The notes beneath the pieces were generated by a model, which saw only the letters and a list, made by a program, of their open reading frames with translations, was not told the origin of the DNA and did no database searches. A stretch of DNA of 13,585 bases from a virus (Duplodnaviria; Heunggongvirae; Uroviricota; Caudoviricetes). Both the position numbers and the translations under genes were made by a program. The stretch is taken from the IMG/VR virus record IMGVR_UViG_2778261251_000022. The stretch is one strand, 5' to 3'. Below, one piece after another: positions 1-13,585 of the stretch (position 1 is the first letter of the stretch; the number at the start of each line of letters is the position of its first letter).

Positions 1-291
1 TTATCTGGTGTGGTCGTAGTTCTGCCGTAGTCGTTCACCCTCAGCGCAATGACGCGGTTTTTTAACGCCGCTGGTAACGCAACGCGGGCAGGTCATGACG
101 TGGCTGATATACGCATCACGGGCAGCCAGCCACGTCGCTGACGGGGCGCACATATCCGCCAGCGCCTGGCCGTTGCTGGTGGTGTTGTCTTCCGGCCATG
201 TTTCGGGCTGGTGCGCTTCCGGTAAATCCGGTGCAGGTAATGCCCGGATAAACTCACACAATGCATCCGGCAGGCTGAATAACTTATGCAT
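1..291 (-). pseudogene. 96-aa ORF resembling an internal segment of the helicase at 991..2829; probable remnant or duplicated fragment
   Basis: Protein ...CEFIRAL...SNGQALADMC... parallels helicase ...PEFVRWL...SNGQTLADMY.... DNA 151..180 matches 1531..1560 at 29 of 30 nt, then diverges with an indel. TAA stop at 1..3 comes far earlier than in the helicase. Start at 291 (cat at 289..291 on plus). Confidence 0.35.
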
Positions 292-715
292 AAATCTGAT
301 GTTCTGAATCGCTGAAAACGTGCGTTTTATGGCGTTTTTTCGTGATTTCTGCGTGTTCTGATGTGCTCATTTCGCTGTATCCCTTGTGTGGCGCGGGCTG
401 CGCGTGTGTTTCGGTGTTCTTTTTTACCGCCAGAAAACGGTAATCAGGCATATAAACACGGCTGTAAGCCGCGCCGCGTCTGGCTTCGCGTGATTTTGTG
501 CGTCAAAAAGTGCATTTTTGCCCTTAAAAAGCGTTATTCGTAATTCACTGGTAAATGCTCCGCAGGCCGCGCCATTGCTGGCCTTTTCGCTATTCTGTGT
601 GGTTTTGCTGTTTAACCCGTTTTGCACACTAAAATTGCCTTGCATCCCGCGCCACGTAAGGGATTGCCGGGTTTTTATGTTGCGTTTTTTGCCGTGCGTA
701 ATATTGTGCAAGTTG

Positions 716-957
716 GTGGGACTGGTGGGAACTGTGGGAACCGCCTAGAACCACGCGGCTTTCAGTGGTTCCCACCAGTTCCCACGTTGGCTTTTTGTGG
801 GAACCGTGGCGGTTATTTTTTGTTCTTTGCGGTTCCCACCAGTTCCCGCAGAGTTCCCACTCAAAAACGAACAATAATCATACTGATGGTTTTATTATTT
901 ACTGATTTATATATGTTTTATTTTTACGGTTCCCACAGTTCCCACCAGTCCCACCAC
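716..957. repeat. Iteron cluster: about 12 copies of octamer GTTCCCAC/GTGGGAAC in both orientations around an AT-rich core (861..927); probable replication origin (P4 ori/crr-like)
   Basis: Copies read directly at 716-722, 725-732, 734-741, 797-804 (GTGGGAAC orientation) and 768-775, 778-785, 832-839, 842-849 (variant), 853-860, 929-936, 938-945, 948-954 (GTTCCCAC orientation). Lies immediately downstream of the helicase gene. Confidence 0.7.
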
Positions 958-990
958 TTTTTCAGTTTTTAAAAACGCAATTTTTGTGAA

Positions 991-2829
991 TTATTCATCA
1001 ATTGCGAATAACAATGCATTCTGGCCGATGGCGTAAACGCGGTGTTTCTCCCCGTTAACGGAAACGCGTTTTGTGTATCGGCGTTTCCCGTCCGTGTCGC
1101 GGTCAACAATCGCGCCAGCATCGTCAAGACTGGCCGCTATGCGTTTCAGGTCGTAGCCGCTGGCCGCCTCACATAGTGCTTCCGGTAAAAACCAGTAAAC
1201 CCGCTCGCCGTTGCTCCCCGGTCGCCACCATCCGGCGCGGGTGCTTACTGGTTCGCTGTATGTGCTGCCCCCTTCAAAGCGTGAAGCATGGCGGGCGATA
1301 AACCCCGCGACGGCCCGGAGTATTTTCACGTCCTCCGATTGCCCCCGCCCACGATAGTCCGCCCACGCATCAAACATCGCTTTCACTGCCTCCAGTGCTT
1401 CGCCCTGTTTCCACGGCAGAATCCCGGCAGTTATCGCCATTTCCCCGGCCAGTGCGCACAGTGTGAAACGCGCGGCGGCGCGTGCCTCCTGTCCGGTGCT
1501 TACGGGGAATTGTTCGCGCAGTATGGCGTACATATCCGCCAGCGTCTGGCCGTTGCTGTCGGTGCTGGTGGTGTCACTTTCATTGCGGGAAATCAGCCAG
1601 CGCACAAACTCCGGCCCGGCGTGGCCGTAATGGGTAGCCGCATTACCGCGCAGTGTTTCGGCAAATTTCCGGCCTGCTCCCCGGCGTTCTGTGTCGTTGT
1701 CGGGGTTGTGGGGTAGTGCCATTCCGTGAAGACAGTCAAATGCCCCGTAAAGCCGCTGTGCCGGAATATCCAGTAACCGCATTTCCTGCCCGGCCTTGAT
1801 GCGCTGGCCGCCGCTTTCCATGTGTTTACCCACGGTCATTTCCCCGGTGGAAATAATCATGGTGCGCCATGTGTTGACCGGGCGGGCCATGCCGGACACC
1901 TTGCCACGCTGACGGCCTGTTCCGTTGCCAAGCTGATAAATCAGCCCGCCAATATCTCTGGCCGGGGCTTCGCCAATTTCATCCAGTATCAGCGCGGTAT
2001 CGTTCCGCATGGTTGCCAGCCCTTCAAGCCCGGTGCTGGTGGCGTTCCAGTTGCGTTTAAAGTTGCGGGGTTCTCCCCATACGCTACAGGCCACCAGCGC
2101 CCCCACGCTTTTCCCGCTGGAACTGTCGCCCATGAAATGAAATCCGCCGCTGTCCACATCAAGCAACCACAGCAACGGCCCGGCGAGCGATGCACACACG
2201 GCCAGCATGGTTACCGGGTTTCCCCGGCATAATGCGGCCACGTTGTCGCGCCAGCCCTCCGGCGTTCCTGCGGTGGCGTACTCCTGTGAGCCTGCTTCTG
2301 TTGACTGAAACACCACATCACCATCACCGATAACCCCGCCCGGCATGACAAACAGGGCCGGGGAGTGCCACCCGGTGGCCGTGGCCGCGAGCGCCCGGCG
2401 TTTTGGTGCTGACTCCATGATGTATTCAGTCAGTGCCTGCCGTTGTTTGTAGGGAATGGTAACGCCCATGCGTAGCAGTTCCTGCCGGAGTTCTCCGCCG
2501 TCTCCGGCGAGCATTTCCATCGGTGCGGCCCATTCCCGCCACTGGCCTGACGGCGTGAGAAAACGGAGTAATCGCCCGTAGTTTTCGTCTTTGCTGTCGC
2601 TGGTCATGGCGATGACCTCCAGCGGGGAACATATAAACGTGTCTGTGTTGGTTGAGTCGCGCACGCCGTGCCAGTAAAGGCCGGGTTTCAGTATCTGGCC
2701 GCCGTCCACCTGTACATGCTGCGAATAAGTGGCGTAGCCCGGACGCGCCGGGCTGACTTTGGGGTGTTTCTTGCGTGGTGGTTTTCTCTTCCCGGATGTG
2801 ACCGGGGTTTTAGTGGTTGTCCGGGTCAT
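991..2829 (-). CDS. Replicative helicase / P-loop NTPase (P4 alpha C-terminal-like, D5/DUF927-type)
   Basis: 612-aa ORF. Walker A GDSSSGKS and Walker B ALILDEIGE visible in the translation. Sits directly downstream of the primase, overlapping its 3' end by 20 nt. ATG at 2829. Confidence 0.8.
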   Translation of the reverse strand: MTRTTTKTPVTSGKRKPPRKKHPKVSPARPGYATYSQHVQVDGGQILKPGLYWHGVRDSTNTDTFICSPLEVIAMTSDSKDENYGRLLRFLTPSGQWREWAAPMEMLAGDGGELRQELLRMGVTIPYKQRQALTEYIMESAPKRRALAATATGWHSPALFVMPGGVIGDGDVVFQSTEAGSQEYATAGTPEGWRDNVAALCRGNPVTMLAVCASLAGPLLWLLDVDSGGFHFMGDSSSGKSVGALVACSVWGEPRNFKRNWNATSTGLEGLATMRNDTALILDEIGEAPARDIGGLIYQLGNGTGRQRGKVSGMARPVNTWRTMIISTGEMTVGKHMESGGQRIKAGQEMRLLDIPAQRLYGAFDCLHGMALPHNPDNDTERRGAGRKFAETLRGNAATHYGHAGPEFVRWLISRNESDTTSTDSNGQTLADMYAILREQFPVSTGQEARAAARFTLCALAGEMAITAGILPWKQGEALEAVKAMFDAWADYRGRGQSEDVKILRAVAGFIARHASRFEGGSTYSEPVSTRAGWWRPGSNGERVYWFLPEALCEAASGYDLKRIAASLDDAGAIVDRDTDGKRRYTKRVSVNGEKHRVYAIGQNALLFAIDE

Positions 2830-3853
2830 GCTCCATTTCCCATAGCATCAAATCGTTAAAGTCGGAAAGGTCTGGTGATGCACCGGGCGGCCATTCCGGG
2901 AATGTGACGTAACACCCGGCCAGCAATGCGGCTTCGTTGGCTGCTCTGGAACCGGGGTTATCTTTTGATGCCCGGTCATCATCCCCGGCGATAACGAGAG
3001 ATATGCGCGAGCCGTATCGCTCACGCAGCGCCATAGCCACATGTTTAAGGTTTCCCGCATTCATGGCACACACCACGGCCATGACGTTCCAGTACTGGAG
3101 AAGGGCGGCCCCGGTGGCCCACCCCTCACACACGTAAACGTCATGTTCCGGCGCTTCCGGGGCCATCAGGTCAAAGCTCCCCATAACATGGAAAGCCCCC
3201 TGCACCTGACCATCACGGAGAAACATTTTTCGACCGTCCGGGCTGATAATCTGCACGTTCACCACTTCGCCGCATACGTTGTACAGCGGGACAAGCAAAT
3301 CATTACCTGACTGATACAGATTGCCGGGCTGTAGCCGTTTTTTCATGAGATAGGGATGAGAAGGGTTTGCCACCTCCGCCCGGCCAAGCAACTCAAAGGC
3401 CCGGCAGGCGGTCAGTTTCTGGCGCTGGTGGCGCTGTTGCTGTTCCCGCTGGCGGAGTCTGGCCGCCTCCTGTTCTGCGGCCTGTACCCGCACCCGTTGC
3501 GCCTCCCGTTGTTCGCGGGTCATTACATCAGGTTTGCCCAGCGCGGGCAGGCACAGCCCCAGCCTGTCCGCCACAATACGGGCGGCATCAGTCTGCCGCA
3601 CATTCCATAAATAAGCCCCCAGCGCCACAAGGTCGCCGCCGCTGTCCCCGGTGGCGAAGTCGTGCCAGCATCCGTCCACCAGCGAGACGGAAAAACTGCC
3701 CGCGTGACGGTCTGCACGCGTGGGGTTACGACACACCCATTCAGTGGCCTGCCGTTTACCTTCGGGCAGCCATTCGGGAACAAGGATTTCTGCATGTTGT
3801 GCCGCCACTGCGGCAACGCTACGGATTGCGTTAATCGTGGCTATGTCACGCAT
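2810..3853 (-). CDS. DNA primase, zinc-binding + Toprim domain (P4 alpha N-terminal-like)
   Basis: Cys/His cluster CRNPTRADRH...GCWHDF. Toprim motifs VYVCEGWATG (conserved Glu) and LVIAGDDDRASKDNPG. Start moved from the 4003 ORF start to ATG at 3853 (MRDIATINAIRS...), which has GGGAGGA upstream and abuts the TGA stop (3846..3848) of the preceding ORF. Confidence 0.85.
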   Translation of the reverse strand: MRDIATINAIRSVAAVAAQHAEILVPEWLPEGKRQATEWVCRNPTRADRHAGSFSVSLVDGCWHDFATGDSGGDLVALGAYLWNVRQTDAARIVADRLGLCLPALGKPDVMTREQREAQRVRVQAAEQEAARLRQREQQQRHQRQKLTACRAFELLGRAEVANPSHPYLMKKRLQPGNLYQSGNDLLVPLYNVCGEVVNVQIISPDGRKMFLRDGQVQGAFHVMGSFDLMAPEAPEHDVYVCEGWATGAALLQYWNVMAVVCAMNAGNLKHVAMALRERYGSRISLVIAGDDDRASKDNPGSRAANEAALLAGCYVTFPEWPPGASPDLSDFNDLMLWEMEHDPDNH

Positions 3854-4160
3854 GTTGCCCGTCCTCCCTGATTTCCCCGGTGCGGCAGCGCCAGTTATAC
3901 GCCTCCACAACCTCACTGAATCCGGCCACAAGTTCAGCCGTAACAGCGATGGAATCGCCCAGGCTGCGTAGTTCATTTGGACCAAGAGCATTATTGTCGC
4001 CAATTACCGAAAGTAGCCGCCCTGTGCCAGCCAGCGCATCAAGCAGTTTGCGGGCGCAGTAATCCGCATCATCAAACATTGCGCGGGCTTCCTGTGCGTC
4101 TGCGTTTTTGATGGCCGCAACCAGTAGTTCAGGTATCCGGGTGTTATACATATCACGCAT
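3846..4160 (-). CDS. Hypothetical small protein (104 aa) in the operon upstream of the primase
   Basis: ORF with GGGGAGG RBS upstream of ATG at 4160. Stop abuts primase start. Its start overlaps the stop of the 4153..4449 ORF. No recognisable motif. Confidence 0.6.
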   Translation of the reverse strand: MRDMYNTRIPELLVAAIKNADAQEARAMFDDADYCARKLLDALAGTGRLLSVIGDNNALGPNELRSLGDSIAVTAELVAGFSEVVEAYNWRCRTGEIREDGQHA

Positions 4161-4449
4161 GGCTTACCTCCCCGGCCTGCTGGTCGTAACACTCCATCAG
4201 TTCGGCCATACAGCCAATGAGGGCAGGGGCTGTCTGTAGAAATCCGGCTAACTGGCAGATCTCGTCTCTGGAATAGGTGATGGGGTTTTCGCGTAACTGG
4301 CTTTCCTCCAGTGCCTTACCAACAAAGGCAATCCCCGCAAGTAAATTCACTCTGTGCCAGTCTGCATCAACGCGCAGACTCCAGCGGCTTTCTTCGTCCG
4401 GCATACTGCTCATGGCGGCTTTCATTGACTCACGCAGACAATCACGCAT
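4153..4449 (-). CDS. Hypothetical small protein (about 98 aa)
   Basis: Internal ATG at 4449 chosen (MRDCLRESMK...) because the longer 4530 start would overlap the upstream 65-aa gene. Stop at 4153..4155 sits 2 nt from the next ATG (4160). Start is uncertain (4449 vs 4530). Confidence 0.5.
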   Translation of the reverse strand: MRDCLRESMKAAMSSMPDEESRWSLRVDADWHRVNLLAGIAFVGKALEESQLRENPITYSRDEICQLAGFLQTAPALIGCMAELMECYDQQAGEVSHA

Positions 4450-4639
4450 GACGCACCCCCTGAGCCGGAACGCGGCCAGCAAACAGCAACACAAAATCAC
4501 GCGCCAGCATACGGCGGGCGGTTGTTTCATCGGGTGCGTTGACGGATTCGCGGTGTGGGCGGTCGTTCAGGTCGGAACGGCGAACAGCCAGAAAGTGAAA
4601 GGTAAATTCAGGGTGTAACGGGGTTGGGGTCGTAGCCAT
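4442..4639 (-). CDS. Hypothetical small protein (65 aa), first gene of the leftward operon
   Basis: C-terminal part of the 201-aa track ORF. ATG at 4639 is preceded by a strong AAAAGGAGG RBS. The longer N-terminal extension runs through structured, GC-rich intergenic DNA and is judged spurious. Confidence 0.55.
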   Translation of the reverse strand: MATTPTPLHPEFTFHFLAVRRSDLNDRPHRESVNAPDETTARRMLARDFVLLFAGRVPAQGVRHA

Positions 4640-5065
4640 TCTGGCAGCCTCCTTTTGCAAATTTAAGGAGTCACCGCCTGAGTTCCTACACTCATAAGGG
4701 GCGGTGACGCTGGCAGGGGTAGGAATACCGGCGCAAAAGGAAACCGGCCAGCCTTTCGGCTGCCCCACCAGCGCCACCATAGATACAGTGCGGGTCTTGC
4801 CGCTGTGCATGGGTGCGCGATGGCACGACACAAAAAAAGACGCTGGGCGCGTCTGTGTCGCCTTTTGCTCATTAAACGGGTTCCTACGCCCGGCTGGTGG
4901 ATTTACACCAGCGGGGGAAATATAACGCCCACCAGCGATGGCAGGCAAGCAATATTTGCGGTTGCCGCCCATCCCGTGGGGCGTGTGGTGGTTGTTTTGG
5001 GCGTGAGAACGCCCCGGCCCTGTTACGGGCCTTTCTGGCATTTTCATAATGATTATCGCGGTTGG
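4640..5065 (-). promoter_or_regulatory. Structured leader / promoter region between the alpA-like gene and the small-gene/primase operon (candidate immunity or regulatory RNA region)
   Basis: About 425 bp without a convincing ORF. Several stem-loops: GTCACCGCC(4672-4680)/GGCGGTGAC(4702-4710); GCTGGTG...CACCAGC near 4890-4915; GGGCGT-gaga-ACGCCC near 5002-5017. Plus the terminator at 4827..4859. Confidence 0.4.
4827..4859 (-). terminator. Intrinsic-terminator-like hairpin followed by a T7 run on the minus strand
   Basis: Minus strand reads AGACGC-GCCCA-GCGTCT then TTTTTTT (plus 4832..4854). Lies within the alpA to small-gene intergenic leader. Confidence 0.45.
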
Positions 5066-5320
5066 TTAGTGGCTGGTGGGTTCTTTGTTTTTTTGCGCTC
5101 TGGCGATAATTTCTGCCATTACGTTATTGCGTTCCTCCACGCGGGCCGCAAGCCATGCATTAACTTCGGATTCAAACCATCCAACGCGGCGCAGCCCGCG
5201 ACGAAAGCCGGGGATAAATTCGCCAGCCCGAATCATGTCGTCAATGCTGGTAGTGGAACGAAGGCGCAGACGCGCAGCAACCTCGCGTTTGGTGAGGATT
5301 TTATCTTGTGTGGTGTCCAT
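5066..5320 (-). CDS. alpA: AlpA/Vis-family small DNA-binding regulator (excisionase-like HTH)
   Basis: 84 aa from ATG 5320 with AAGAGG RBS. Sequence KREVAARLRLRSTTSIDDMIRAGEFIPGFRRGLRRVGWFESEVNAWLAAR fits the AlpA/prophage-regulatory-protein pattern. Position next to the integrase module is typical. Confidence 0.75.
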   Translation of the reverse strand: MDTTQDKILTKREVAARLRLRSTTSIDDMIRAGEFIPGFRRGLRRVGWFESEVNAWLAARVEERNNVMAEIIARAQKNKEPTSH

Positions 5321-5453
5321 GATATTTCGCCTCTTAATTGTATTAATTGGCCCTAACTGGCCATAACAATATGGAAGCACAAGAAGGCGTGAAATTGCCG
5401 GACATGTCCATCAGATGGCTGACATGTCCGGCGTATACTCATTCGTGAATTGA

Positions 5454-6332
5454 CTAATCAACCTTAAACCAGCGTCGCATGGTTTTTTGTGAGGGCAGAG
5501 ATAAACCAGCTTTGCAAAAATCGTTTTCTAATTCTGTTGGCTGGCCCTTGGTTTTGTCTTCTCTTACATGAAGCCATGGTTTGCCTCGCTTCGTTTCATC
5601 CTTGTAATACAGATAAAGCAAATCATCCACAAAAGCAGGCAGTGCGCTTCTTGGGTCTGGTTGTGTCGTCGGTGATGGTAGTTTTTTGGTTATGCACCCC
5701 ATTAACATCCCGTTAGCGCAATCTCTCCCGCCATCCTTAAGGATTTCGATTTCTTCGGCGGTAATAAACAGGTCATCAATGCTTACATCGAGTGGACTGG
5801 AATCAAAAGTAATCATCGGGCTGAGGGAATAATCGTCACCGTCAGTGTTCATTGTCCTTGGCTTTCCAAGAGAAAAACGAGCCGATGACTTTCCATATTT
5901 TACAAAATCATAAAAAGGCATGGATTTGGTCAGGTTGCATATGGACATTAACCCTTCTATGGTCAAGTACCTGTATCCCATTAAAGGTATTTGGTTTTTC
6001 GGAATACCTCTGGGACGTTCTTCACTGATAAACAGAATTGCTGTTGTGACTTCAAAATCTCCCGCGCTATATGGTGTATAGACGGTAAATGGTAGCTGAC
6101 ACAGTGAATCGCCAAGCGGTTTAAATAAAACATACTTATCAGTTGATTTAGTTTCATAATGGTTAAACAGGTCAATTTCAGCCCGCCACCTTCCTGATAT
6201 ATGTGTACAAATCTCCAGCATTCCTATGTCAGCAAAATGAAGCAAATCATCAACACTGCACTTATTGGAGTTTGCAGTCAGATAACTGGCCGCATCGCGT
6301 AGTGAGTAAAACAATCTTTTAGGTAATGCCAT
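5454..6332 (-). CDS. Hypothetical protein (292 aa), cargo gene between integrase and alpA
   Basis: ORF whose ATG (6332) lies 2 nt after the integrase TAA stop (6334..6336). Visibly more AT-rich than the flanking backbone. No motif recognised. Confidence 0.65.
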   Translation of the reverse strand: MALPKRLFYSLRDAASYLTANSNKCSVDDLLHFADIGMLEICTHISGRWRAEIDLFNHYETKSTDKYVLFKPLGDSLCQLPFTVYTPYSAGDFEVTTAILFISEERPRGIPKNQIPLMGYRYLTIEGLMSICNLTKSMPFYDFVKYGKSSARFSLGKPRTMNTDGDDYSLSPMITFDSSPLDVSIDDLFITAEEIEILKDGGRDCANGMLMGCITKKLPSPTTQPDPRSALPAFVDDLLYLYYKDETKRGKPWLHVREDKTKGQPTELENDFCKAGLSLPSQKTMRRWFKVD

Positions 6333-6333
6333 A

Positions 6334-7608
6334 TTATTCACCAACCACTTTTAAGCCACGAAAACCGCCAGTTGCACTAAGGCTTCCGGTTGCTGCCTGT
6401 TCGATAAAATCACCCCACCACGCCATCAGTGGGCGGCGTTGCTCCAGATATGTGGAGCGATTGTAAGCCCGTCTCACCGTGTCCTTATCCAGATGGGAAA
6501 GCGCAGCCTCTATTACATCTGGCGGGAACCCCTGTTCATTAAGCGCCGTACTTGCTACAGAGCGTAAACCATGCGCCACCAGCTTTCCGGTATACCCCAT
6601 GCGCCTGATAGCGGCGTTTGCGGTCTGTTGATGCATCCCACGCATGGGGTCGCTGTTATGTGGAAAAACAAACTTTCGATGCCCGCTGATTGGGCGCATG
6701 GCTTCAAGAATGGCCATTGCCTGATTATTCAGGGGGACAATGTGCTCCCTTCGTTGTTTTAGTCGCCCGGCTGATATACGCCACACTCTGGCATCTGCAT
6801 CTATCTCGCTCCACTGTGCCCCGGCTGCCTCGCATGGGCGGCAAATAGTTAATAATTGCCATTCAATAACAAGACGCGTTTGAAGTTCTGCGCGAGCCGT
6901 TGCCAGTTTTTGCATAAATTCCGGCAACTCATCAGGCCTGATTGTTGGCATGTGTTTAACTACAGGTGGGTTGAATGCCTTGCTGATTTGAGCGGCGGGA
7001 TTAGCTGGAATTAATCCAATATTCACTGCGTAATACATAACCTCATTGATTCTTTGTGCCAGCCGTCGCACCGTATCCGCTTTGCCCTGTGCTGATACAG
7101 GTTTCAGGGCTTCGATAAAATCCCGTGCAACCAGTTCTGTGATTGGGCGATGGCCTATGGGTGGCAGCACATGACGCTCAAGAGAACGCCATATATCACG
7201 GAGTGTATTTGCCGCCAGATTCTGGCCGCGCTTTACTTCAAACCATTCTTCGGCCACGCGCTGAAATGTGTTTAATCGCCGTATTTCATCATCCCGGCGT
7301 TGTTTTTCCCTGTGTTCTTTGGGGTCAGTTCCATTTGCGACCAGTGAGCGATACTCGTCTTTAATCCTGCGAGCATCGGCAATGCTGATTTCGGGATATG
7401 CACCAAGGCTTAACATTGCCCGTTTTTTGGTGTGTGGCTTGTAGTACCGGAACCGCCATAAGGCTGATGCGCTACCCGCTTTCACAACTAACTCCAGCCC
7501 ATCGCCATCCGTGATAAATAAATCCTTCTCGGCGGTGAGCGATTTCTTCTGCAAACTTTTAATCGTCGCTGGTGTAAGTAATTTTGTGTTTTTGGCCACT
7601 GGTTGCAT
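6334..7608 (-). CDS. int: Tyrosine site-specific integrase (P4-type, with N-terminal arm-binding domain)
   Basis: 424 aa. N-terminal WRFRYY motif. C-terminal catalytic signature AHGLRSV...LSHLDKDTVRRAYNRSTY (R, H-x-x-R, H, Y). 5' end faces the tRNA fragment. Confidence 0.9.
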   Translation of the reverse strand: MQPVAKNTKLLTPATIKSLQKKSLTAEKDLFITDGDGLELVVKAGSASALWRFRYYKPHTKKRAMLSLGAYPEISIADARRIKDEYRSLVANGTDPKEHREKQRRDDEIRRLNTFQRVAEEWFEVKRGQNLAANTLRDIWRSLERHVLPPIGHRPITELVARDFIEALKPVSAQGKADTVRRLAQRINEVMYYAVNIGLIPANPAAQISKAFNPPVVKHMPTIRPDELPEFMQKLATARAELQTRLVIEWQLLTICRPCEAAGAQWSEIDADARVWRISAGRLKQRREHIVPLNNQAMAILEAMRPISGHRKFVFPHNSDPMRGMHQQTANAAIRRMGYTGKLVAHGLRSVASTALNEQGFPPDVIEAALSHLDKDTVRRAYNRSTYLEQRRPLMAWWGDFIEQAATGSLSATGGFRGLKVVGE

Positions 7609-7719
7609 CCCGAAACAGGTTTAAGGCATACGAGATTGCTTCTGTTTGTGAGGATATGCCTTGATGTATGCCTAAAGAATCTGGCTTATACCTTAGCAAA
7701 CTGGCCAAAACTGGACAAT

Positions 7720-7755
7720 AAAAAACCCGCAAGCCTTGTGTGGCGCGGGTTTCGT
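7720..7755 (-). terminator. Intrinsic-terminator-like hairpin with T6 run on the minus strand, downstream of the tRNA fragment
   Basis: Minus strand: CCCGCGCC-acacaa-GGCTTGCGGG followed by TTTTTT. Located about 45 nt 3' of the tRNA CCA end. Confidence 0.5.
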
Positions 7756-7796
7756 CTGATTAACTGGCCGTATCTGATACTAACCGAATGTCAATT

Positions 7797-7843
7797 TGGT
7801 GGCCCCTGCTGGACTTGAACCAGCGACCAAGCGATTATGAGTC
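7797..7843 (-). tRNA. Partial tRNA: 3' 47 nt only (anticodon loop CUCAUAA with anticodon CAU, variable loop, T-arm, acceptor 3' strand, CCA); probable att core/direct repeat, not a functional gene
   Basis: Minus strand reads ACTCATAATCGCTTGGTCGCTGGTTCAAGTCCAGCAGGGGCCACCA: T-stem GCTGG/CCAGC with loop TTCAAGT, acceptor GGGGCC plus ACCA. The 5' half (acceptor 5' strand, D-arm, 5' anticodon stem) is absent, as upstream is ...gcctcatg. From memory it matches the 3' part of enterobacterial tRNA-Ile2 (ileX/ileY type); this is unverified. Confidence 0.8.
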
Positions 7844-7967
7844 ATGAGGCAAGTTCGTTCTATATTGTTTTTGTTTGTTCGTAATTGCTTTATTAGTTGT
7901 TTATAATCAATGAATTATGTAATTTTCTCTGTCTCCGCTTGGTTCCGTTTTTTCTTCATTGTACGAT

Positions 7968-7992
7968 CGTTACCTGACCCATTACCTGACCC
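7968..7992 (+). repeat. Tandem direct repeat TTACCTGACCC x2 upstream of integrase 2 (possible arm-type or regulatory site)
   Basis: cgTTACCTGACCCaTTACCTGACCCaaaatc read directly; copies at 7970-7980 and 7982-7992. Confidence 0.4.
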
Positions 7993-8039
7993 AAAATCAC
8001 GAGTTATTCTGATTGTTACTGGTTTAGAAAAGAGGTTCT

Positions 8040-9356
8040 ATGGCCGTCAATCTTACTGAAACAGCCATCCGAGCATTGAAAGCAAAAAAGACATCGTTCT
8101 ATGTCTGGAGCAACAGCTCTCAACGTGGCACTGGACGACTTGGTGTCAAAGTTCAGTCTTCTGGCAGCAAGATTTTCTATTTCCGCTATTACGTGGAAAA
8201 AGGGAAAAAAGAAAGATTCATTCAATTGGGTATATGGCCTGAGATGAAACTGGCCACAGCGAATGAACTGGCAAAAAAGTATGGTGCCTGGCTCATTGAA
8301 GGAAAGGATCCCCAGGCAGAACTGGAACGACAACAGTTTGCAGAACAGCAGCGGATACAACTCCATCAATCACAGGGCTCATTTGAAGCATTGATTCATG
8401 GTTATGTTAACAAAATGAAAATTGATAATAAGAGGACATGGCAGGATGTTCTGAAACGCCTTGAAAATGAATGCTATACAGTGATCCCCCGTGAAACTAA
8501 AGCTAAAGATGTGACTTCCGGACAGATTAAACATATCCTGGCCGGGATCATTCAGCGTGGTGCTGTGGTTCACTCTAACCGGATCCGTTCTTACCTGATG
8601 GCTGCATTTAACTATGGACTGAAAGCAGATAACGATCCGATGAACACAAGTGCAGGGATTACTTTTGGGCTGGAGGCAAATCCGGTGTCAGTGATACCGA
8701 AACAGTCATCTGCTGAAAAAGTCGGTGATACCTGGCTGACACTTGAAGAGTTGCGTTTTCTAATGGAACATTTTGCTGAAGCAACCAACGTTGGATTATT
8801 GATGCAACATTTGATCCGATTCTGTATCTATACCGGAGGGCAACGTCCCTTCGAAATGATCGCCAGTCAGTGGTGTGATGTTGATTTTCAACAAAAAACG
8901 CTGCTGGTGACTGCTGATGTCTCTAAAAATAAACGAGAGCATTTGATACCGTTGACTGAATCAGCATTACAGGAATTATCCTGTGTGCAGGAGTTAACAA
9001 AAGAAAAATCCAGCCCTTACATTTTTCCACTTTCGACTAATGGTAAGCGTCCGGTTCGTACGGACAGTCTGGCTCGCGCTATCATGTATTTCCGGGCTTT
9101 TAATCCTGACTTTAAAATTTTTACAGCACGTGACTTACGTCGGACCTGTAAAACGTTAATGGGAGAAGCTGGGATCAGTAAGGAAATCCGCGATCGTATT
9201 CAAAATCATGCGTTGAACGATGTCAGTTCAAAACATTATGATCGATACGATTATTTGCCAGAAAAACGCAGAGCACTTGAGATCTGGGAGGACCGGGTTA
9301 ATAACTATCAACAGCAAACAGGCAATAATGTTGTCAATCTGTTTGGCAGAAGGTGA
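8040..9356 (+). CDS. int: Tyrosine site-specific integrase (second, distinct from the one at 6334..7608)
   Basis: 438 aa. AAGAGG RBS 5 nt upstream of ATG. N-terminal FYFRYY arm-binding-type motif. C-terminal RDLRRT...IQNHALNDVSSKHYDRYDY (R, H, Y catalytic residues). Confidence 0.88.
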   Translation: MAVNLTETAIRALKAKKTSFYVWSNSSQRGTGRLGVKVQSSGSKIFYFRYYVEKGKKERFIQLGIWPEMKLATANELAKKYGAWLIEGKDPQAELERQQFAEQQRIQLHQSQGSFEALIHGYVNKMKIDNKRTWQDVLKRLENECYTVIPRETKAKDVTSGQIKHILAGIIQRGAVVHSNRIRSYLMAAFNYGLKADNDPMNTSAGITFGLEANPVSVIPKQSSAEKVGDTWLTLEELRFLMEHFAEATNVGLLMQHLIRFCIYTGGQRPFEMIASQWCDVDFQQKTLLVTADVSKNKREHLIPLTESALQELSCVQELTKEKSSPYIFPLSTNGKRPVRTDSLARAIMYFRAFNPDFKIFTARDLRRTCKTLMGEAGISKEIRDRIQNHALNDVSSKHYDRYDYLPEKRRALEIWEDRVNNYQQQTGNNVVNLFGRR

Positions 9357-9455
9357 GGGAGTTCCTGGTCGCTGTACGAATTGTGTACAATCGATGGGTA
9401 TTGTTGATGCACTTGGTTCTTGTATTGTTTACTATAATTATTGAGGTAAATTTTC

Positions 9456-10082
9456 GTGCCGGTATTACTCAGAGGGGATTCAAAAATGGCTGTAATTCCA
9501 ATGTCTTACTCCCCTGCTACTGTAGCTCGTCGTTTTTCGATACTGGATGGAGTAACTATTCAGGGCGTGCTTTACCAGATCATCTGGGATCCAAAGACTC
9601 CGTTTGCTGCGGTAATCGAAGCTGCACCTTCTGTTATTGATGGTGATGTTCGCCATAAGGTTGTTGCCACTCTGGAGCTTCAGCGTCGTCCCCGGCTTGA
9701 AGGCGTGTTTGTCCAGAAATTCTGGGAAGAACAGGATGTTGCTCAGATTGAAGGGATTGTTGTCGATGGCGCTGTACGTGATGTTGGTCTTGCAACGTTT
9801 GTTTATGAAACGATAGTCACAAAAGCGGGCGTTGTACTATTAAGTGATAACGAGCAATATGAAGGAGGTAAAGCTCTCTGGCAGCATATTGCGCGTCGTT
9901 CAACGAATCTGAAGGTGTTTATTTTAGATACTGATTCCGCACGGTATTACCCGTTTGATGGCGAACGGATCAGTTATGACGGGAAAAGCATCCCGGAATC
10001 AGAAATCTGGAGTGAACATCCTGAGCGAAACAGACACGCTGTCGTTCTTGTGGCTGAATCTGTTAATGGTAAAGCCGCATAA
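9456..10082 (+). CDS. Hypothetical protein (about 198-208 aa)
   Basis: ORF downstream of integrase 2. Two candidate starts: GTG 9456 (GAGGT 8 nt upstream) or ATG 9486 (GAGGGG 7 nt upstream). Followed by a hairpin terminator. No confident motif. Confidence 0.6.
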   Translation: MPVLLRGDSKMAVIPMSYSPATVARRFSILDGVTIQGVLYQIIWDPKTPFAAVIEAAPSVIDGDVRHKVVATLELQRRPRLEGVFVQKFWEEQDVAQIEGIVVDGAVRDVGLATFVYETIVTKAGVVLLSDNEQYEGGKALWQHIARRSTNLKVFILDTDSARYYPFDGERISYDGKSIPESEIWSEHPERNRHAVVLVAESVNGKAA

Positions 10083-10129
10083 TTTGCCGAGTGTCTCGTT
10101 TTTTGAGATCTTGCTGGAAAGTCTCCCTT

Positions 10130-10158
10130 GGGGATAGCGAACTGCTATCCCCTTTCTC
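10130..10158 (+). terminator. Hairpin terminator between convergent genes
   Basis: GGGGATAGC-GAACT-GCTATCCCC followed by TTTCTC on the plus strand. Sits between the stop of the plus-strand ORF (10082) and the stop of the minus-strand ORF (10165). Confidence 0.55.
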
Positions 10159-10164
10159 AGTGAG

Positions 10165-11769
10165 TTACTGTTCGACCAGACATTTTCCCCATAAAGGTCG
10201 TATCGAGTATCTATCTTCGCTATATGGATTTATTTTATTTTTTTCCCTCTGTGCTATCAGCAACGTGTCGATCTCATCCTTAATAATGTGTTGAACTGTT
10301 TGACGGTAACGGTTAAGCGAAGTGTCACTGATATCTTGTGGAAGTTGTAGACTGCCATCTGCCTTGACGAGTTCATTCACACCATCTTTAATTTTGCGTC
10401 CCTGACCATCAGGTATACCTTCATTCAGATCATAGCCTTTCAGTCCTGCAAGACGAATATTCACGTCAATCTTTTCTGTACGTTTCTTTTTGTTACTTAC
10501 CAACAGAATTTTATTGGCGTTATACCATTTTTCAAATGTTTCCAGTTGTTTCATGATGTTTGTGAAGTTATTCAGTTCGCTCCTGAATTCAATAGATTTT
10601 CTAATTTCACGCTCTTTTGCATCAATGTTTGTTCCTGGATAATTTATTTCCCTTTTTAACGGTTCTATGTATGCCTGTTGCAGGCAACCAGCAAGATTCA
10701 TTGCTGCATCCTGCAGGGTATTGGTATAAATCAGTTTCAGAAGTTCATCGCGCTGTATAGTGATTTGACAATAGTCTTTTTCCCATGCGGTGGTGTTTTC
10801 AATCGTGTCACTTTCATCGGAAATAATTGTTGTGAATTTCCAGGTGTAACGAATAAAATCATTTCCTTTAAAATATTGCACTAATTTATTTAACCATTCA
10901 TATATTTCCAGAGCATAAAGTTTAACGTATCCATCATATATTATCTTTGTTGCATTTTTGTTGGCTAGCGAAAACATTTTGTCCACGAATTCTGTACGCC
11001 CGATTGTTAGCAATTGTTTTCTAAGTTTACTCACATCGTTAGTATCTGGTTTCTCACAATTCCAGGGACTTTTGTATTCATTTTCAAAAGGAGAAAGCCA
11101 TTCAGGAATCTCTGTTTCTGAGTGATAGCAGTTGTTAATAGCCAAACCAAGGGTTCTGGCAAGTATCGCTGATTCATCAATTTGATGGTATCGGTTCAGT
11201 TGTTCCAGTAATTCTTTAGTACATGAGTGCGCAACAGAAAGATCCTGATGGCAATATCCTTGTCGAACCAGAGCGGGAAGTGGTGAGCAATGAGCTTTGC
11301 AATCTGTCAGAATATTGAACAAATCGTTTCTGACGAATTCTTCCATCTCAGGTGTTTTCCAGCCACCACTATTTTGGCCGACAAATTTTGCTGTTGGTTC
11401 CCTGTTCATATCTCCCCAGGTTTTCAGGCTGACGAGTCTGTTATCAAAACCATTGTATAAATGGCACATAACCTGAAAAGCAGCATACAGCTCTTTAGAT
11501 AGTGGATTATCGGTCTCACCTATGGAGTAGTCCTCTCTATTTTGCTCTAAAATATTTTGTAGTTTTGTGTTAGCGCGTAATGCCGAGAGAATCCGATGTT
11601 GTTCATCAAACCAGGGACGATATTCTGGATCCAGATACAATCTGCGTGCTTTGAAAATGAGTAGAAGCAACTGTTCGGAAACAGCTTCATGTATGTGGGG
11701 AAACGGCATGGAGGTGCCAGATAAAACACGATAGTACGGGTGGTTTGTTTTTACCTTTTTAGTTACCAT
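10165..11769 (-). CDS. Hypothetical protein (534 aa), AT-rich cargo gene of unknown function
   Basis: Long uninterrupted ORF in AT-rich DNA, which is statistically unlikely by chance. TAA stop at 10165..10167. Transcribed divergently from the AT-rich intergenic region it shares with the alpA-like gene. No canonical catalytic motif recognised. Confidence 0.75.
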   Translation of the reverse strand: MVTKKVKTNHPYYRVLSGTSMPFPHIHEAVSEQLLLLIFKARRLYLDPEYRPWFDEQHRILSALRANTKLQNILEQNREDYSIGETDNPLSKELYAAFQVMCHLYNGFDNRLVSLKTWGDMNREPTAKFVGQNSGGWKTPEMEEFVRNDLFNILTDCKAHCSPLPALVRQGYCHQDLSVAHSCTKELLEQLNRYHQIDESAILARTLGLAINNCYHSETEIPEWLSPFENEYKSPWNCEKPDTNDVSKLRKQLLTIGRTEFVDKMFSLANKNATKIIYDGYVKLYALEIYEWLNKLVQYFKGNDFIRYTWKFTTIISDESDTIENTTAWEKDYCQITIQRDELLKLIYTNTLQDAAMNLAGCLQQAYIEPLKREINYPGTNIDAKEREIRKSIEFRSELNNFTNIMKQLETFEKWYNANKILLVSNKKKRTEKIDVNIRLAGLKGYDLNEGIPDGQGRKIKDGVNELVKADGSLQLPQDISDTSLNRYRQTVQHIIKDEIDTLLIAQREKNKINPYSEDRYSIRPLWGKCLVEQ

Positions 11770-12548
11770 AATGTTAAATTCTTCCGTCTATTGCATAGCT
11801 GTTTCCAGTAGAGAAACTTGATACAGTCCTTTGTCAGGACATTGATACAGAGTTAACAGCCTCTACGAAATGGGAATCAGTTATGCAGTGGCATTATACG
11901 ATGCTGAATCTAATACGATATCCTTAGCGTTTATTCCTGATTTTTTTACGAGCATTCCCTTTTGTTGCATATTGCTCAGGACGTAAATGATTTTACGGTT
12001 ATAGCCCTCTACAGTCACGTCACTTTCATCTGAAAATATGTATCGTTTTCATTCAATTATTATCTTTTGTCTGCACTTTAGCTTTAGCAAGTTGGCAAAA
12101 ATCAACTCCCTCTTACAAGTTCTATTATCGCCAGAAGATAATTTTGTGAACTTCGTCACGTTTTCAAACTAATGTTGTGGGGGCTTTTCTGGGGAAAATT
12201 TTTGGTCACTACCCCTCCTCTTGATATCATAGATCATAACAAGATTTTTTTTGTTTTTGTCTGCATAAAATAACCTGCAAAGATTATGATTTTGGTTTTT
12301 ATTTTGTATATTAAAAAGTATTGTTTGAATTATTTTTATATTGTGACTTTCTTTGTTGTTATTGTGTTATTAGAAGTCAGTTAATTAAATCAATTCTCGC
12401 AATTTGATTTCTTGGTTGTGCAAATGTATTGTTTTGCTCGTGAGTTGCTGGTGCTGTTCAACAGCATACCACTACAGATAGATGTAGTGATTTGAGCAGC
12501 TCACATGCATATACAATCTGAAAATCATGAATGTATAAGGAGAGCAAT
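11770..12548. promoter_or_regulatory. Long AT-rich divergent intergenic region (probable divergent promoters for the 534-aa gene and the alpA-like gene)
   Basis: About 780 bp with no ORF of 60 aa or more. Very AT-rich with A/T tracts, typical of horizontally acquired promoter regions. Confidence 0.4.
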
Positions 12549-12776
12549 ATGTGGAAGCCGTTAAGAGATGAGAACCGTTTATCAATTTTGAAGATCTATG
12601 GATACACCTGTGACAGACTGGTACGAGAAGAGGAACGTCAGAACATTACGTCTATTTCTCGTTCACAAGCCTGGAAACTGGAACGTGAAGGAAAATTCCC
12701 GCCACGTAAAACTATTGGAAAGAAATCCTGTGGGTGGTTATTAAGTGATCTATTGTGGTGGATTAGTCAGTATTAA
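12549..12776 (+). CDS. AlpA-family-like small DNA-binding regulator (75 aa)
   Basis: ATG at 12549 preceded by AAGGAG (7-nt spacer); the upstream in-frame ATG at 12531 lacks an RBS. ...ITSISRSQAWKLEREGKFPPRKTIGKKSCGWLLSDLLWWI fits the AlpA-like HTH pattern. Confidence 0.6.
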   Translation: MWKPLRDENRLSILKIYGYTCDRLVREEERQNITSISRSQAWKLEREGKFPPRKTIGKKSCGWLLSDLLWWISQY

Positions 12777-12838
12777 CCTTATAGTATCAGAATAATATAT
12801 ATTTCTATATTTTAATTTTATAATTAAAAAGGAGTTTC

Positions 12839-13585
12839 ATGATGAAACGTGTCTCTTTCTCTCTTGCAGAAACATATGAAGCTGATGTAATTAAAAAGTA
12901 TCAGCATTTAAAAAAATGTTCATTTTCAGCAGCGATTAAAGAGTGTTTAAAGCTAGGGGCTCCTGTTTTAAACAGGATAAATGAAAATATTGCTGCTATA
13001 ACTGATATAGAGGATAAGCTACGTCAGTTTTTTAATGAGGAACCATTTGTGCAACGGACAAAGCCTGAAATAACAAAAGGAGAGTTTTTTCATAGCATTT
13101 ATAAATCGCATATCAAATATGAATATGATGTTCTCGATAGAAAGATATTTCCTCATGAAAGCACCAGAAATGCTATGGGAGTTGCAGAGAAAAAGGGAAT
13201 TAAAGAGAATGCGATCTTAATGCTGGAATATTATAAAGTTGAGAAGGCAATTTGTATTTACACGAACAGAAAAGTTTCCCATGCCCTGAATCGTGCAGGA
13301 GGGTTTTATAAAACCATTCTGATTAAAACCAGTGTTTTTGGGGATTATTTTTTTGACTTTTGCAATTCAGTTTGCCTGCCGATAGATGAATTGATTGAGT
13401 ATGGTACGAAAGAAACAGTGAGGCGACATCAGATTCGTAGTACAGGATTTTGTACTTTTCATATTCCGATTTTTTATATCAATAATAAGGCTGTAATAGT
13501 GCCTGTTCTGAGAACAGAGGAAGTTTCACAAAGTTCCAGAACAGGTGGAGATGTTATTATTATTAACCCATTTGAAGATGAATGA
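12839..13585 (+). CDS. Hypothetical protein (248 aa) with possible N-terminal ribbon-helix-helix fold
   Basis: Strong AAAAGGAG RBS. N-terminus KRVSFSLAETYEADVIKKYQHL...SFSAAIKECLKLG has a beta-strand/helix/helix pattern reminiscent of CopG/RHH. Stop codon is the last 3 nt of the window. Confidence 0.65.
   Translation: MMKRVSFSLAETYEADVIKKYQHLKKCSFSAAIKECLKLGAPVLNRINENIAAITDIEDKLRQFFNEEPFVQRTKPEITKGEFFHSIYKSHIKYEYDVLDRKIFPHESTRNAMGVAEKKGIKENAILMLEYYKVEKAICIYTNRKVSHALNRAGGFYKTILIKTSVFGDYFFDFCNSVCLPIDELIEYGTKETVRRHQIRSTGFCTFHIPIFYINNKAVIVPVLRTEEVSQSSRTGGDVIIINPFEDE

Follow-up and report, generated by a model that had tools for sequence, protein, structure and literature searches.

The stretch of DNA that we analyzed comprises 13,585 nucleotides of IMG/VR virus record IMGVR_UViG_2778261251_000022 (we refer to the whole stretch as the window), and it corresponds to the Escherichia coli chromosome at ileX, a gene for tRNA-Ile2. 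Near its middle, a 47-nt piece of this tRNA gene lies between two integrase genes that point away from each other: int1, which belongs to a satellite-like element on the left, and int2, which belongs to a ~42-kb island on the right.

Read on the minus strand, positions 7797-7843 are GACTCATAATCGCTTGGTCGCTGGTTCAAGTCCAGCAGGGGCCACCA, which matches positions 30-76 of ileX at 47 of 47 nucleotides. The reference for this match was the intact tRNA-Ile gene (anticodon CAT) of strains that have only the satellite-like element, and no such match to the tRNA is expected in shuffled sequences. An earlier reading of the window, which was made from the sequence only, had described a perfect tRNA 3' portion at 7797..7843 (minus strand) that runs from the anticodon loop (CAU) to CCA and is not a gene, as its 5' half is missing. 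We agree. In tRNA sense, the fragment is preceded by ...CTTGCCTCAT and not by ...AGAGCAGGC, so the 5' half of the tRNA is not contiguous with it; ARAGORN called no tRNA gene in the window; and the Rfam tRNA models gave no match to the window at the gathering threshold, nor any at E <= 10. Neither the 47-nt sequence nor its 25-nt 3' block has a second copy, whether in the window or across the homologous locus of 41 kb. Some copies of the fragment have acquired point mutations: one tandem locus (L046) has ATCATG for ATTATG in the former anticodon loop, and copies at the second tRNA-Ile2 gene, ileY (L008, L050, and L054), have CCCT for CCCC in the acceptor strand. These mutations are consistent with the absence of selection on the fragment.

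The sequence-only reading placed the two integrase genes ~190 and ~200 bp from the fragment, and this also stands. int1 (6334..7608, minus strand) starts 189-198 bp to the left (the start of the RefSeq homologue corresponds to 7599), while int2 (8040..9356, plus strand) starts 197 bp to the right. Both proteins carry the Pfam domains Arm-DNA-bind_3, Phage_int_M, and Phage_integrase (PF13356, PF22022, and PF00589), with the match of Int2 to Phage_int_M falling below the Pfam cut-off. They are just 24% identical to each other. Int1 is a tyrosine integrase of the IntA/CP4-57 type: it scores 521.7 bits against NF007246 (PRK09692), for which the cut-off is 434, and it is 52% identical to IntA of E. 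coli K-12 over its full length, with the HGLRS, AL(S/A)H, and RRAYNRS blocks conserved. Int2 is a more divergent tyrosine integrase that scores only 77.9 bits against the same model, and we do not assign it to the IntA family. In a scan of genome contigs, relatives of Int1 were at most 56% identical and were mostly found at ssrA; the distant ones lie 180-230 bp downstream of genes for transfer-messenger RNA (tmRNA) or tRNA, in the same orientation. They inform the layout rather than the position of the att sites. The Int1 protein itself is indexed, as an exact sequence, in 835 blocks of the collection. Homologues of Int2 at 95% identity occur in O157, O145, and O103 strains. We also considered whether Int2 is an orthologue of IntF, and we rejected this: the two are 25% identical over the catalytic domain only (E = 1e-5).

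The DNA on either side of the fragment belongs to the attachment (att) arms of the two elements. The int1-proximal arm of the satellite-like element (7609..7796, minus strand) contains three AGGCATAY motifs and a hairpin at ~7720-7755. On the minus strand the hairpin has a stem followed by UUUUUU, which is to say that it is a terminator (folding energy -20.6 kcal/mol, z -2.3); it exceeds the loop-size limit of a simple terminator scan, which missed it, and was recovered by folding. This arm, with its hairpin, also follows intact ileX in strains that have only the satellite-like element. The int2-proximal arm of the island (7844..8039, plus strand) contains the 12-bp sequence TTACCTGACCCA twice in tandem at 7970-7993, where 0.01 occurrences are expected. 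The sequence-only reading had noticed both a terminator-like hairpin (7720..7755) and a tandem repeat (7970..7992), and both are real, the repeat being 2 x 12 bp. It placed them in the att-flanking DNA, but they do not appear to be incidental there: within the att arm of the satellite-like element, the hairpin forms a minus-strand terminator for the tRNA, and the repeats are probable arm-type sites for Int2.

To see how the window fits into a chromosome, we can turn to complete genomes. The closest, HCP5S3_I2, matches the window colinearly over its full length, at 98.8% identity and with no gaps. Its gene order is aer-nfeR-nfeF, an ~8.3-kb element that ends in int1, the fragment, int2 and the remainder of the ~42-kb island, an intact tRNA-Ile gene, and mug-rpoD. 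The fragment and the intact gene are both on the minus strand, 42 kb apart, and the sequence-only reading was right to expect an intact tRNA outside the window. It is in such near-identical genomes, rather than in the window's own replicon, that we find an intact tRNA gene and its cognate fragment in the same orientation. The distal ~0.5 kb of the satellite-like element and its far att site lie to the left of the window. No second copy of the core was seen within the window because the satellite's partner copy has only 10-15 bp and is ~0.5 kb beyond the left edge; it came to light only when junctions were compared.

The sequence-only reading proposed a comparison with island-free strains. We assembled a predicted empty site from the nfeF flank, the fragment, the 5' half of the tRNA, and the mug flank, and it was found at 100% identity; nfeF, ileX, and mug are contiguous in 4955 of 5426 complete E. 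coli genomes. The int1 element is present in 18 of the 5426. In the int1-element genomes that we examined and that lack the int2 junction, the satellite-like element is alone, with int1 directly downstream of intact ileX. int2 is present in 456 genomes, and the opposite island end, with its variant tRNA half, in 455 (452-456 for the co-occurring int2 end). In the island-only strains, the same fragment abuts the native flank on the nfeF side. Some strains have the island at ileY instead, adjoining ypjA.

The singly occupied sites also locate the joint to the nucleotide. The window from 1 to 7843 is 99.97% identical to satellite-only strain P13-6 (the part of the element beyond int1, 1..6333 on the minus strand, included), and the homology ends exactly at 7843, the inner edge of the fragment. 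From the other side, 7794-13585 is 99.5% identical to island-only strain GN02350, and homology to island-only strains begins at 7794-7797. Because the one homology ends where it does and the other begins where it does, the 47 nt are the exact overlap of both. The proposal of the sequence-only reading that this is an att-type fragment at the boundary of tandem elements is borne out by these breakpoints.

We therefore read the fragment as the displaced 3' portion of ileX, at the joint of two unrelated elements that both target ileX and that recombine at different sub-sites within it. We put the probability of this reading at about 90%. It rests on the anatomy of the joint, on the breakpoints, on the empty and singly occupied sites, and on the sequence footprints of both crossovers. 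The idea that two elements used the same tRNA target had been raised before, and since each of them occurs alone at ileX, it holds. But the 47 nt are not one shared core. Instead, Int2 would use the first 20 nt, on the side of the anticodon loop, and Int1 would use the last 15 nt, at the 3' end. In other words, the fragment (7797..7843, minus strand, tRNA positions 30-76) would serve the int2 island as its distal att site, and at the same time it would hold the core that the satellite-like element has on the side of int1.

The evidence for the sub-site of Int2 is that the island brings its own version of the tRNA 3' half. At the far end of the island, the regenerated ileX (locus L003, 21893-21968) combines the native 5' half with a 3' half from the island, GTCGTTGGTTCAAACCCAACAGGGGCTACCA, where the native sequence is GTCGCTGGTTCAAGTCCAGCAGGGGCCACCA. 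The changes are a compensated pair in the T-stem, two changes in the T-loop, and a G1.U72 wobble at the top of the acceptor stem. ARAGORN still scores this hybrid as a tRNA, and ileY provides a second copy of the gene. The displaced fragment has the native sequence, and it is identical to the regenerated gene only over tRNA positions 30-49; past position 49, the next base and four further bases on the 3' side differ. Because positions 30-49 are the only stretch that is identical between the fragment and the island-supplied half, the exchange would be confined to this block (GACTCATAATCGCTTGGTCG, at 7824..7843 on the minus strand), which contains the 7-nt anticodon loop. We infer that strand exchange by Int2 lies there. 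Such a footprint of identity is what we would expect if the attP site of the island carries its own tRNA 3' half and if exchange takes place in the anticodon-loop block.

The sequences beside these ends suggest where else Int2 might bind. The 25-bp pair of repeats, TTGGGTCAGGTAATGGGTCAGGTAA, lies 45-69 nt upstream of int2. In 49 kb, its only other occurrence is past the regenerated ileX, in direct orientation and 56-80 nt from the CCA. As the pairs would flank the core in the circular form of the island, the TTACCTGACCCA repeats are probably the arm-type sites of Int2. The island also supplies a strong terminator after the regenerated tRNA (-17.4 kcal/mol, z -4.8), and by folding, a terminator is present after each of the three tRNA 3' ends.

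For Int1, the evidence comes from the far end of its element and from an insertion at another gene. In one genome (L040), the end of the element that lies beside nfeF has a perfect direct repeat of 15 bp, TGGTGGCCCCTGCTG. And in strain STEC17-183 (L036, 4021-12475), a satellite of the type found in JNEC-KY203 lies inside the efflux gene mdtP, flanked by a 9-bp target repeat, CCCGGGATG. When the flanks are rejoined, they give intact mdtP at 100%. This secondary att site resembles the T-arm and acceptor region of ileX, and the junctions in mdtP show that, on the side of int1, the element itself has ...GGCCACCA. The insertion in mdtP narrows the exchange down to the counterpart of the CAGCAGG(G) block, at the junction of the T-stem and the acceptor stem (tRNA positions 62-70). 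Together with the repeat in L040, it points to crossing over by Int1 at that junction, within a 15-bp core at tRNA positions 62-76 (CAGCAGGGGCCACCA, at 7797..7811 on the minus strand). We infer the exact positions of cleavage; the putative overlap is CAGCAGGG (7804-7811, minus strand; tRNA positions 62-69), within the 15-bp core, and cleavage is predicted on its two sides.

The arms of the satellite-like element have a recurring motif of their own. AGGCATAY occurs five times in the window, where 0.79 occurrences are expected. The proximal arm has three of the motifs, at 7624-7631 (plus strand), 7654-7661 (minus), and 7666-7673 (minus), and the distal arm has two. The motifs are kept in a diverged lineage of satellites, whose integrase region is 97-100% identical to that of JNEC-KY203 and 87% identical to that of the window.

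These observations suggest a simple mechanism for the joint. The attP site of the island would include a copy of tRNA positions 30-76 and a terminator that belong to the island itself, with 12-bp arm repeats on either side. int2 would lie upstream of this tRNA copy, reading away from the tRNA-sense core, and because of this, int2 would end up beside the native fragment and the regenerated tRNA would end up at the far end of the island. The predicted junction of the island circle is int2 arm-GACTCATAA...variant 3' half. In the attP site of the satellite-like element, the tRNA 3' terminus would be followed by the terminator and then by int1 in the orientation of the tRNA, so that int1 would lie directly downstream of any tRNA 3' end to which the element is attached; the predicted circle junction is P' arm-TGGTGGCCCCTGCTG-P arm. 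Because the integrases use different sub-sites, either element would regenerate the target of the other. Double occupancy would then allow only one order, namely nfeF - satellite - int1 - fragment - int2 - island - ileX, and this is why the two integrase genes would diverge from a single 47-nt fragment.

The tandem junction recurs with different genotypes of the satellite and of the island: in the window, in HCP5S3_I2, in JNEC-KY203, and at loci L038, L043, and L046. The satellite in the window differs from that in P13-6 by 2 single-nucleotide polymorphisms (SNPs) and from that in HCP5S3_I2 by 96, and the island part is closer to that of GN02350. JNEC-KY203 has a different satellite at the same joint. 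Judging by these genotypes, the joint has formed more than once.

Several observations weigh against our reading. Neither partner att site is in the window, and we deduced the tandem structure from near-identical genomes (98.8-99.96% identity) rather than from the source replicon. The excised circular junction of the satellite was not found in collections of viral and metagenome sequences. A scan for the attP circle of the island gave a single attP-like match, which was another tandem context and not a circle. As none of these scans yielded a true excised junction, the current mobility of both elements is unproven. Also, 17 of 18 genomes examined lack 1-5 bp of the satellite's distal att site, and this loss may keep the satellite from excising. 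Finally, a scan of the inter-integrase region for sigma-70-like promoters detected none.

The absence of a promoter-like site upstream of the fragment also bears on a quite different idea, that site-specific integration has nothing to do with the fragment, which would instead be a tRNA pseudogene in decay or a functional small RNA derived from the tRNA. A terminator follows the fragment on the same strand, which makes a short transcript conceivable, but that terminator belongs to the satellite arm, and strains that have only the satellite have it after the intact tRNA as well. Furthermore, the fragment is a perfect copy that ends exactly where the singly occupied loci diverge, and the point mutation in the anticodon loop of one tandem strain suggests that there is no constraint. 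We give this idea almost no credence. It is improbable, although not to the same degree, that the joint was made without any integrase in this lineage, by RecA-dependent homologous recombination between an ileX locus with the satellite and another with the island (after transduction or conjugation, for example). Near-identical satellites and islands are found at the same locus in many unrelated strains, and the 96 mismatches between the window and HCP5S3_I2 are confined to 1-5000, a mosaic pattern which shows that homologous exchange does take place in the region. But on one side, the recombining loci would share only 47 bp, which is a poor substrate for RecA, and the breakpoints match the integrase-defined att boundaries exactly. 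The product would be the same as that of an Int2 event, and the Int2 event needs no added assumption.

If both elements arrived by site-specific integration, as we believe, then it is natural to ask which was first. Either order would yield the same final structure, and the sequence by itself therefore does not tell them apart. One history, mechanistically attractive although we lean against it somewhat, is that the island came first and that the satellite then entered the displaced fragment instead of the tRNA gene. The regenerated ileX has GCTACCA for GCCACCA as well as a T-stem change, which makes two mismatches in the 15-bp core of Int1, while the fragment keeps the native core and would be the only perfect attB site for Int1. 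Island-bearing recipients are common, as the island is ~25 times commoner than the satellite (456 versus 18 genomes). And two satellite lineages are found at the fragment beside islands that share the same RefSeq Int2 (WP_000290290.1). On the other hand, a satellite that is marked by an IS21 insertion and has the same distal allele is found alone at intact ileX (in ETEC1732) and also in tandem (L038 and L046), which is more simply explained by the gain or loss of the island in a chromosome that already held the satellite. Similarly, tandem strain HCP5S3_I2 shares its nfeF allele and a flanking SNP with satellite-only strain ETEC1738.

The distal att site of the satellite, ~0.5 kb to the left of the window, deserves further discussion. 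We compared L001 12082-12091 with its equivalents in L004-L007, L009, L010, L012, L013, L034, L035, and L037-L046. Of the 18 genomes that we examined, 17 have a shortened copy of the core, and only one has it at full length. Written in the sense of the tRNA, the shortened copies have CAGCAGGG and then CCACCA, CACCA, ACCA, CCA, or CA, instead of GCCACCA. The losses of 1, 2, 3, 4, or 5 bp are nested from one fixed point, between CAGCAGGG and GCCACCA. They are seen in both satellite lineages and with both flanking-SNP alleles, and the distal alleles differ among satellites that align over 7.8 kb without gaps and with no more than 2 mismatches. The same sequence on the same flank is intact in all 8 of the island-only ileX loci, which lack Int1. 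This control and the absence of any other gap in 7.8 kb disfavor intrinsic slippage as the explanation. The fixed point falls inside the interval where the mdtP event puts one of the strand-exchange sites, and on the DNA end that would be linked to the integrase through a 3'-phosphotyrosyl bond. Our preferred reading is that the deletions may arise by an integrase-dependent process. More tentatively, and with less than even confidence, we suggest that integrases of the Int1 type may leave a mutational scar at the distal att site, with abortive cleavage and nucleolytic repair trimming the site. If this is true, then trimming would progressively ground the satellite, or else it would make its excision destroy ileX.

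Besides int1, the satellite-like element encodes a DUF927 helicase-primase (991-2829) and a Toprim primase (Toprim_3; 2810-4003), both identified by Pfam, an Ash/Icd-like protein (4442-5047; Ash PF10554, 3.6e-26), a small helix-turn-helix protein (5066-5320), and a 296-aa protein that has no match in Pfam, NCBIfam, or PADLOC (5454-6344), all on the minus strand. A C4 antisense RNA (4697-4784, minus; 79.6 bits) and an isrK-like RNA (4833-4912, minus; 60.7 bits) overlap the Ash/Icd-like gene, an arrangement that resembles the RNA immunity modules of P1 and P4. The gene for the 296-aa protein adjoins the integrase, which is where P4-like satellites have a described hotspot for defense systems. 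We rejected the classification of the left element as a P4-like satellite: with the gene set of Moura de Sousa and Rocha (2021), Psu (PF07455), delta (PF04606), and alpha (PF03288) had no Pfam match among the open reading frames of the satellite that we tested. As for the other members of the set, the integrase and Ash are present, and AlpA scores 18.6 bits against a cut-off of 21.

There is some variation among the satellites. Those of the JNEC-KY203 type have two copies of C4 and, near the distal end, a RefSeq-annotated tRNA-Tyr (82 nt) and tRNA-OTHER (91-95 nt), at L007 4313-4512, L034 4275-4470, L035 4378-4577, and L036 4273-4468. The annotated tRNAs in L007 were not called by ARAGORN, nor by Rfam at the gathering threshold. 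Other variants have an insertion of the IS21 family between the Ash gene and the primase operon (at ~4542-4547 of the window; L038, L045, and L046), an insertion with aminoglycoside-resistance genes (Antibiotic_NAT and APH) and an insertion sequence (IS) near the distal end (~169-179; L041, ETEC4090), or an indel of ~72 bp (~575-646; L043).

On the island side, a conserved module follows int2 to the end of the window (9357..13585), and its gene order is kept in island-only strains. It encodes a 208-aa protein (9456-10082, plus strand) and a 534-aa protein (10165-11769, minus), neither of which has a match in Pfam, NCBIfam, or PADLOC, as well as an AlpA-family helix-turn-helix protein (12531-12776, plus; 51.7 bits) and a 248-aa protein (12839-13585, plus). 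Across strains, the ends of the island are conserved and the cargo is variable (compare L001 26000-40900 and L003 1-21800 with L002 28000-40500). In HCP5S3_I2, the cargo includes genes for the utilization of sugars (raffinose and sucrose), IS elements, a methylase/helicase/nuclease cluster (the nuclease being GIY-YIG), Ag43, DUF932, antirestriction, RadC, CbeA/CbtA, and DUF4942, while GN02350 has a type I Zorya system and genes for two-partner secretion and hemagglutinin.

A related arrangement is found elsewhere. In an IMG/VR contig (L049, 3948-12317) and in L057, a homologue of int2 with the same arm repeats adjoins a tRNA fragment that bears the "variant" T-arm. In L049, a capsid-encoding satellite (DUF927, major capsid E, decoration D, AlpA, and Nu1) lies past the variant fragment. 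This is a further tandem at tRNA-Ile2, and it probably hints at where the variant 3' half came from.

The structure that we describe is of a known kind; what we have worked out are the specifics, namely how one fragment holds two sub-sites, what makes up the att arms, and that the joint recurs. The Islander collection of 3919 islands includes 125 tandems (Hudson, Lau and Williams 2015, PMC4383910), and displaced fragments of tRNA genes (tDNA), tandem arrays, and the A, T, and J subsites of crossover are established (PMC4383910; the sublocations are from Williams 2002 as cited there). The preference of integrases for one sublocation or another is also described in the literature, and ileX is documented as an insertion site for integrase-bearing elements. 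Like the Islander tandems, our locus has a regenerated tDNA with displaced fragments in the same orientation, and each element has its own integrase and its own fragment: int2 goes with the 47-nt fragment and int1 with the 10-15-bp distal core beside nfeF. The subsites are also familiar, as Int2 would use A (the anticodon loop), its repeat starting at tRNA position 30, and Int1 would use J (the junction of T-stem and acceptor stem), its repeat covering positions 62-76. Unlike in the Islander tandems, the two members here would use different subsites of one tDNA, the single 47-nt fragment would be both the far att site of the island and the near att site of the satellite, and the satellite's own fragment is only 10-15 bp.

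Each element also has known relatives in layout. The satellite resembles CP4-57, with IntA at ssrA, and elements of the P4 type in that the integrase gene lies ~200 bp downstream of the 3' end of an RNA gene, in the same orientation, and the core is short and 3'-terminal. Unlike CP4-57, it targets tRNA-Ile2 rather than tmRNA, and its cargo is an 8-kb module of primase/helicase, Ash, and C4 RNA. The island resembles CP4-6, at thrW in K-12, which likewise has a module of toxin-antitoxin, RadC, antirestriction, DUF932, and GTPase genes against the intact tRNA, in reverse orientation, YagK-family genes near the far end, and an integrase that reads inward from the distal att site. It is unlike CP4-6 in that Int2 is not an orthologue of IntF, the target is ileX or ileY, and the cargo varies (sugar genes and a restriction-modification system, or Zorya and two-partner secretion). 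Modules of the LAA pathogenicity island and other integrative elements have been reported at the same insertion site, ileX, in Shiga-toxin-producing E. coli; the passages of these reports that we consulted do not mention the anatomy of the att sites, a joint with divergent integrases, or a satellite partner.

A worked example such as this should help automated island callers, which can mis-join arrays or miss a fragment of 10-15 bp. If the hotspot of deletions at the distal att site depends on the integrase, then it would provide a means to place cleavage sites, and to recognize grounded elements, from sequence alone. Our reading also makes a testable prediction: Int1 should accept the 47-nt fragment and refuse the ileX that the island regenerates. 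More broadly, the attP geometry of the two elements would force the divergent arrangement of their integrases. And a single tRNA gene that offers two independent integrase targets, one in the anticodon loop and one at the 3' end, would allow two elements to stack without competing.

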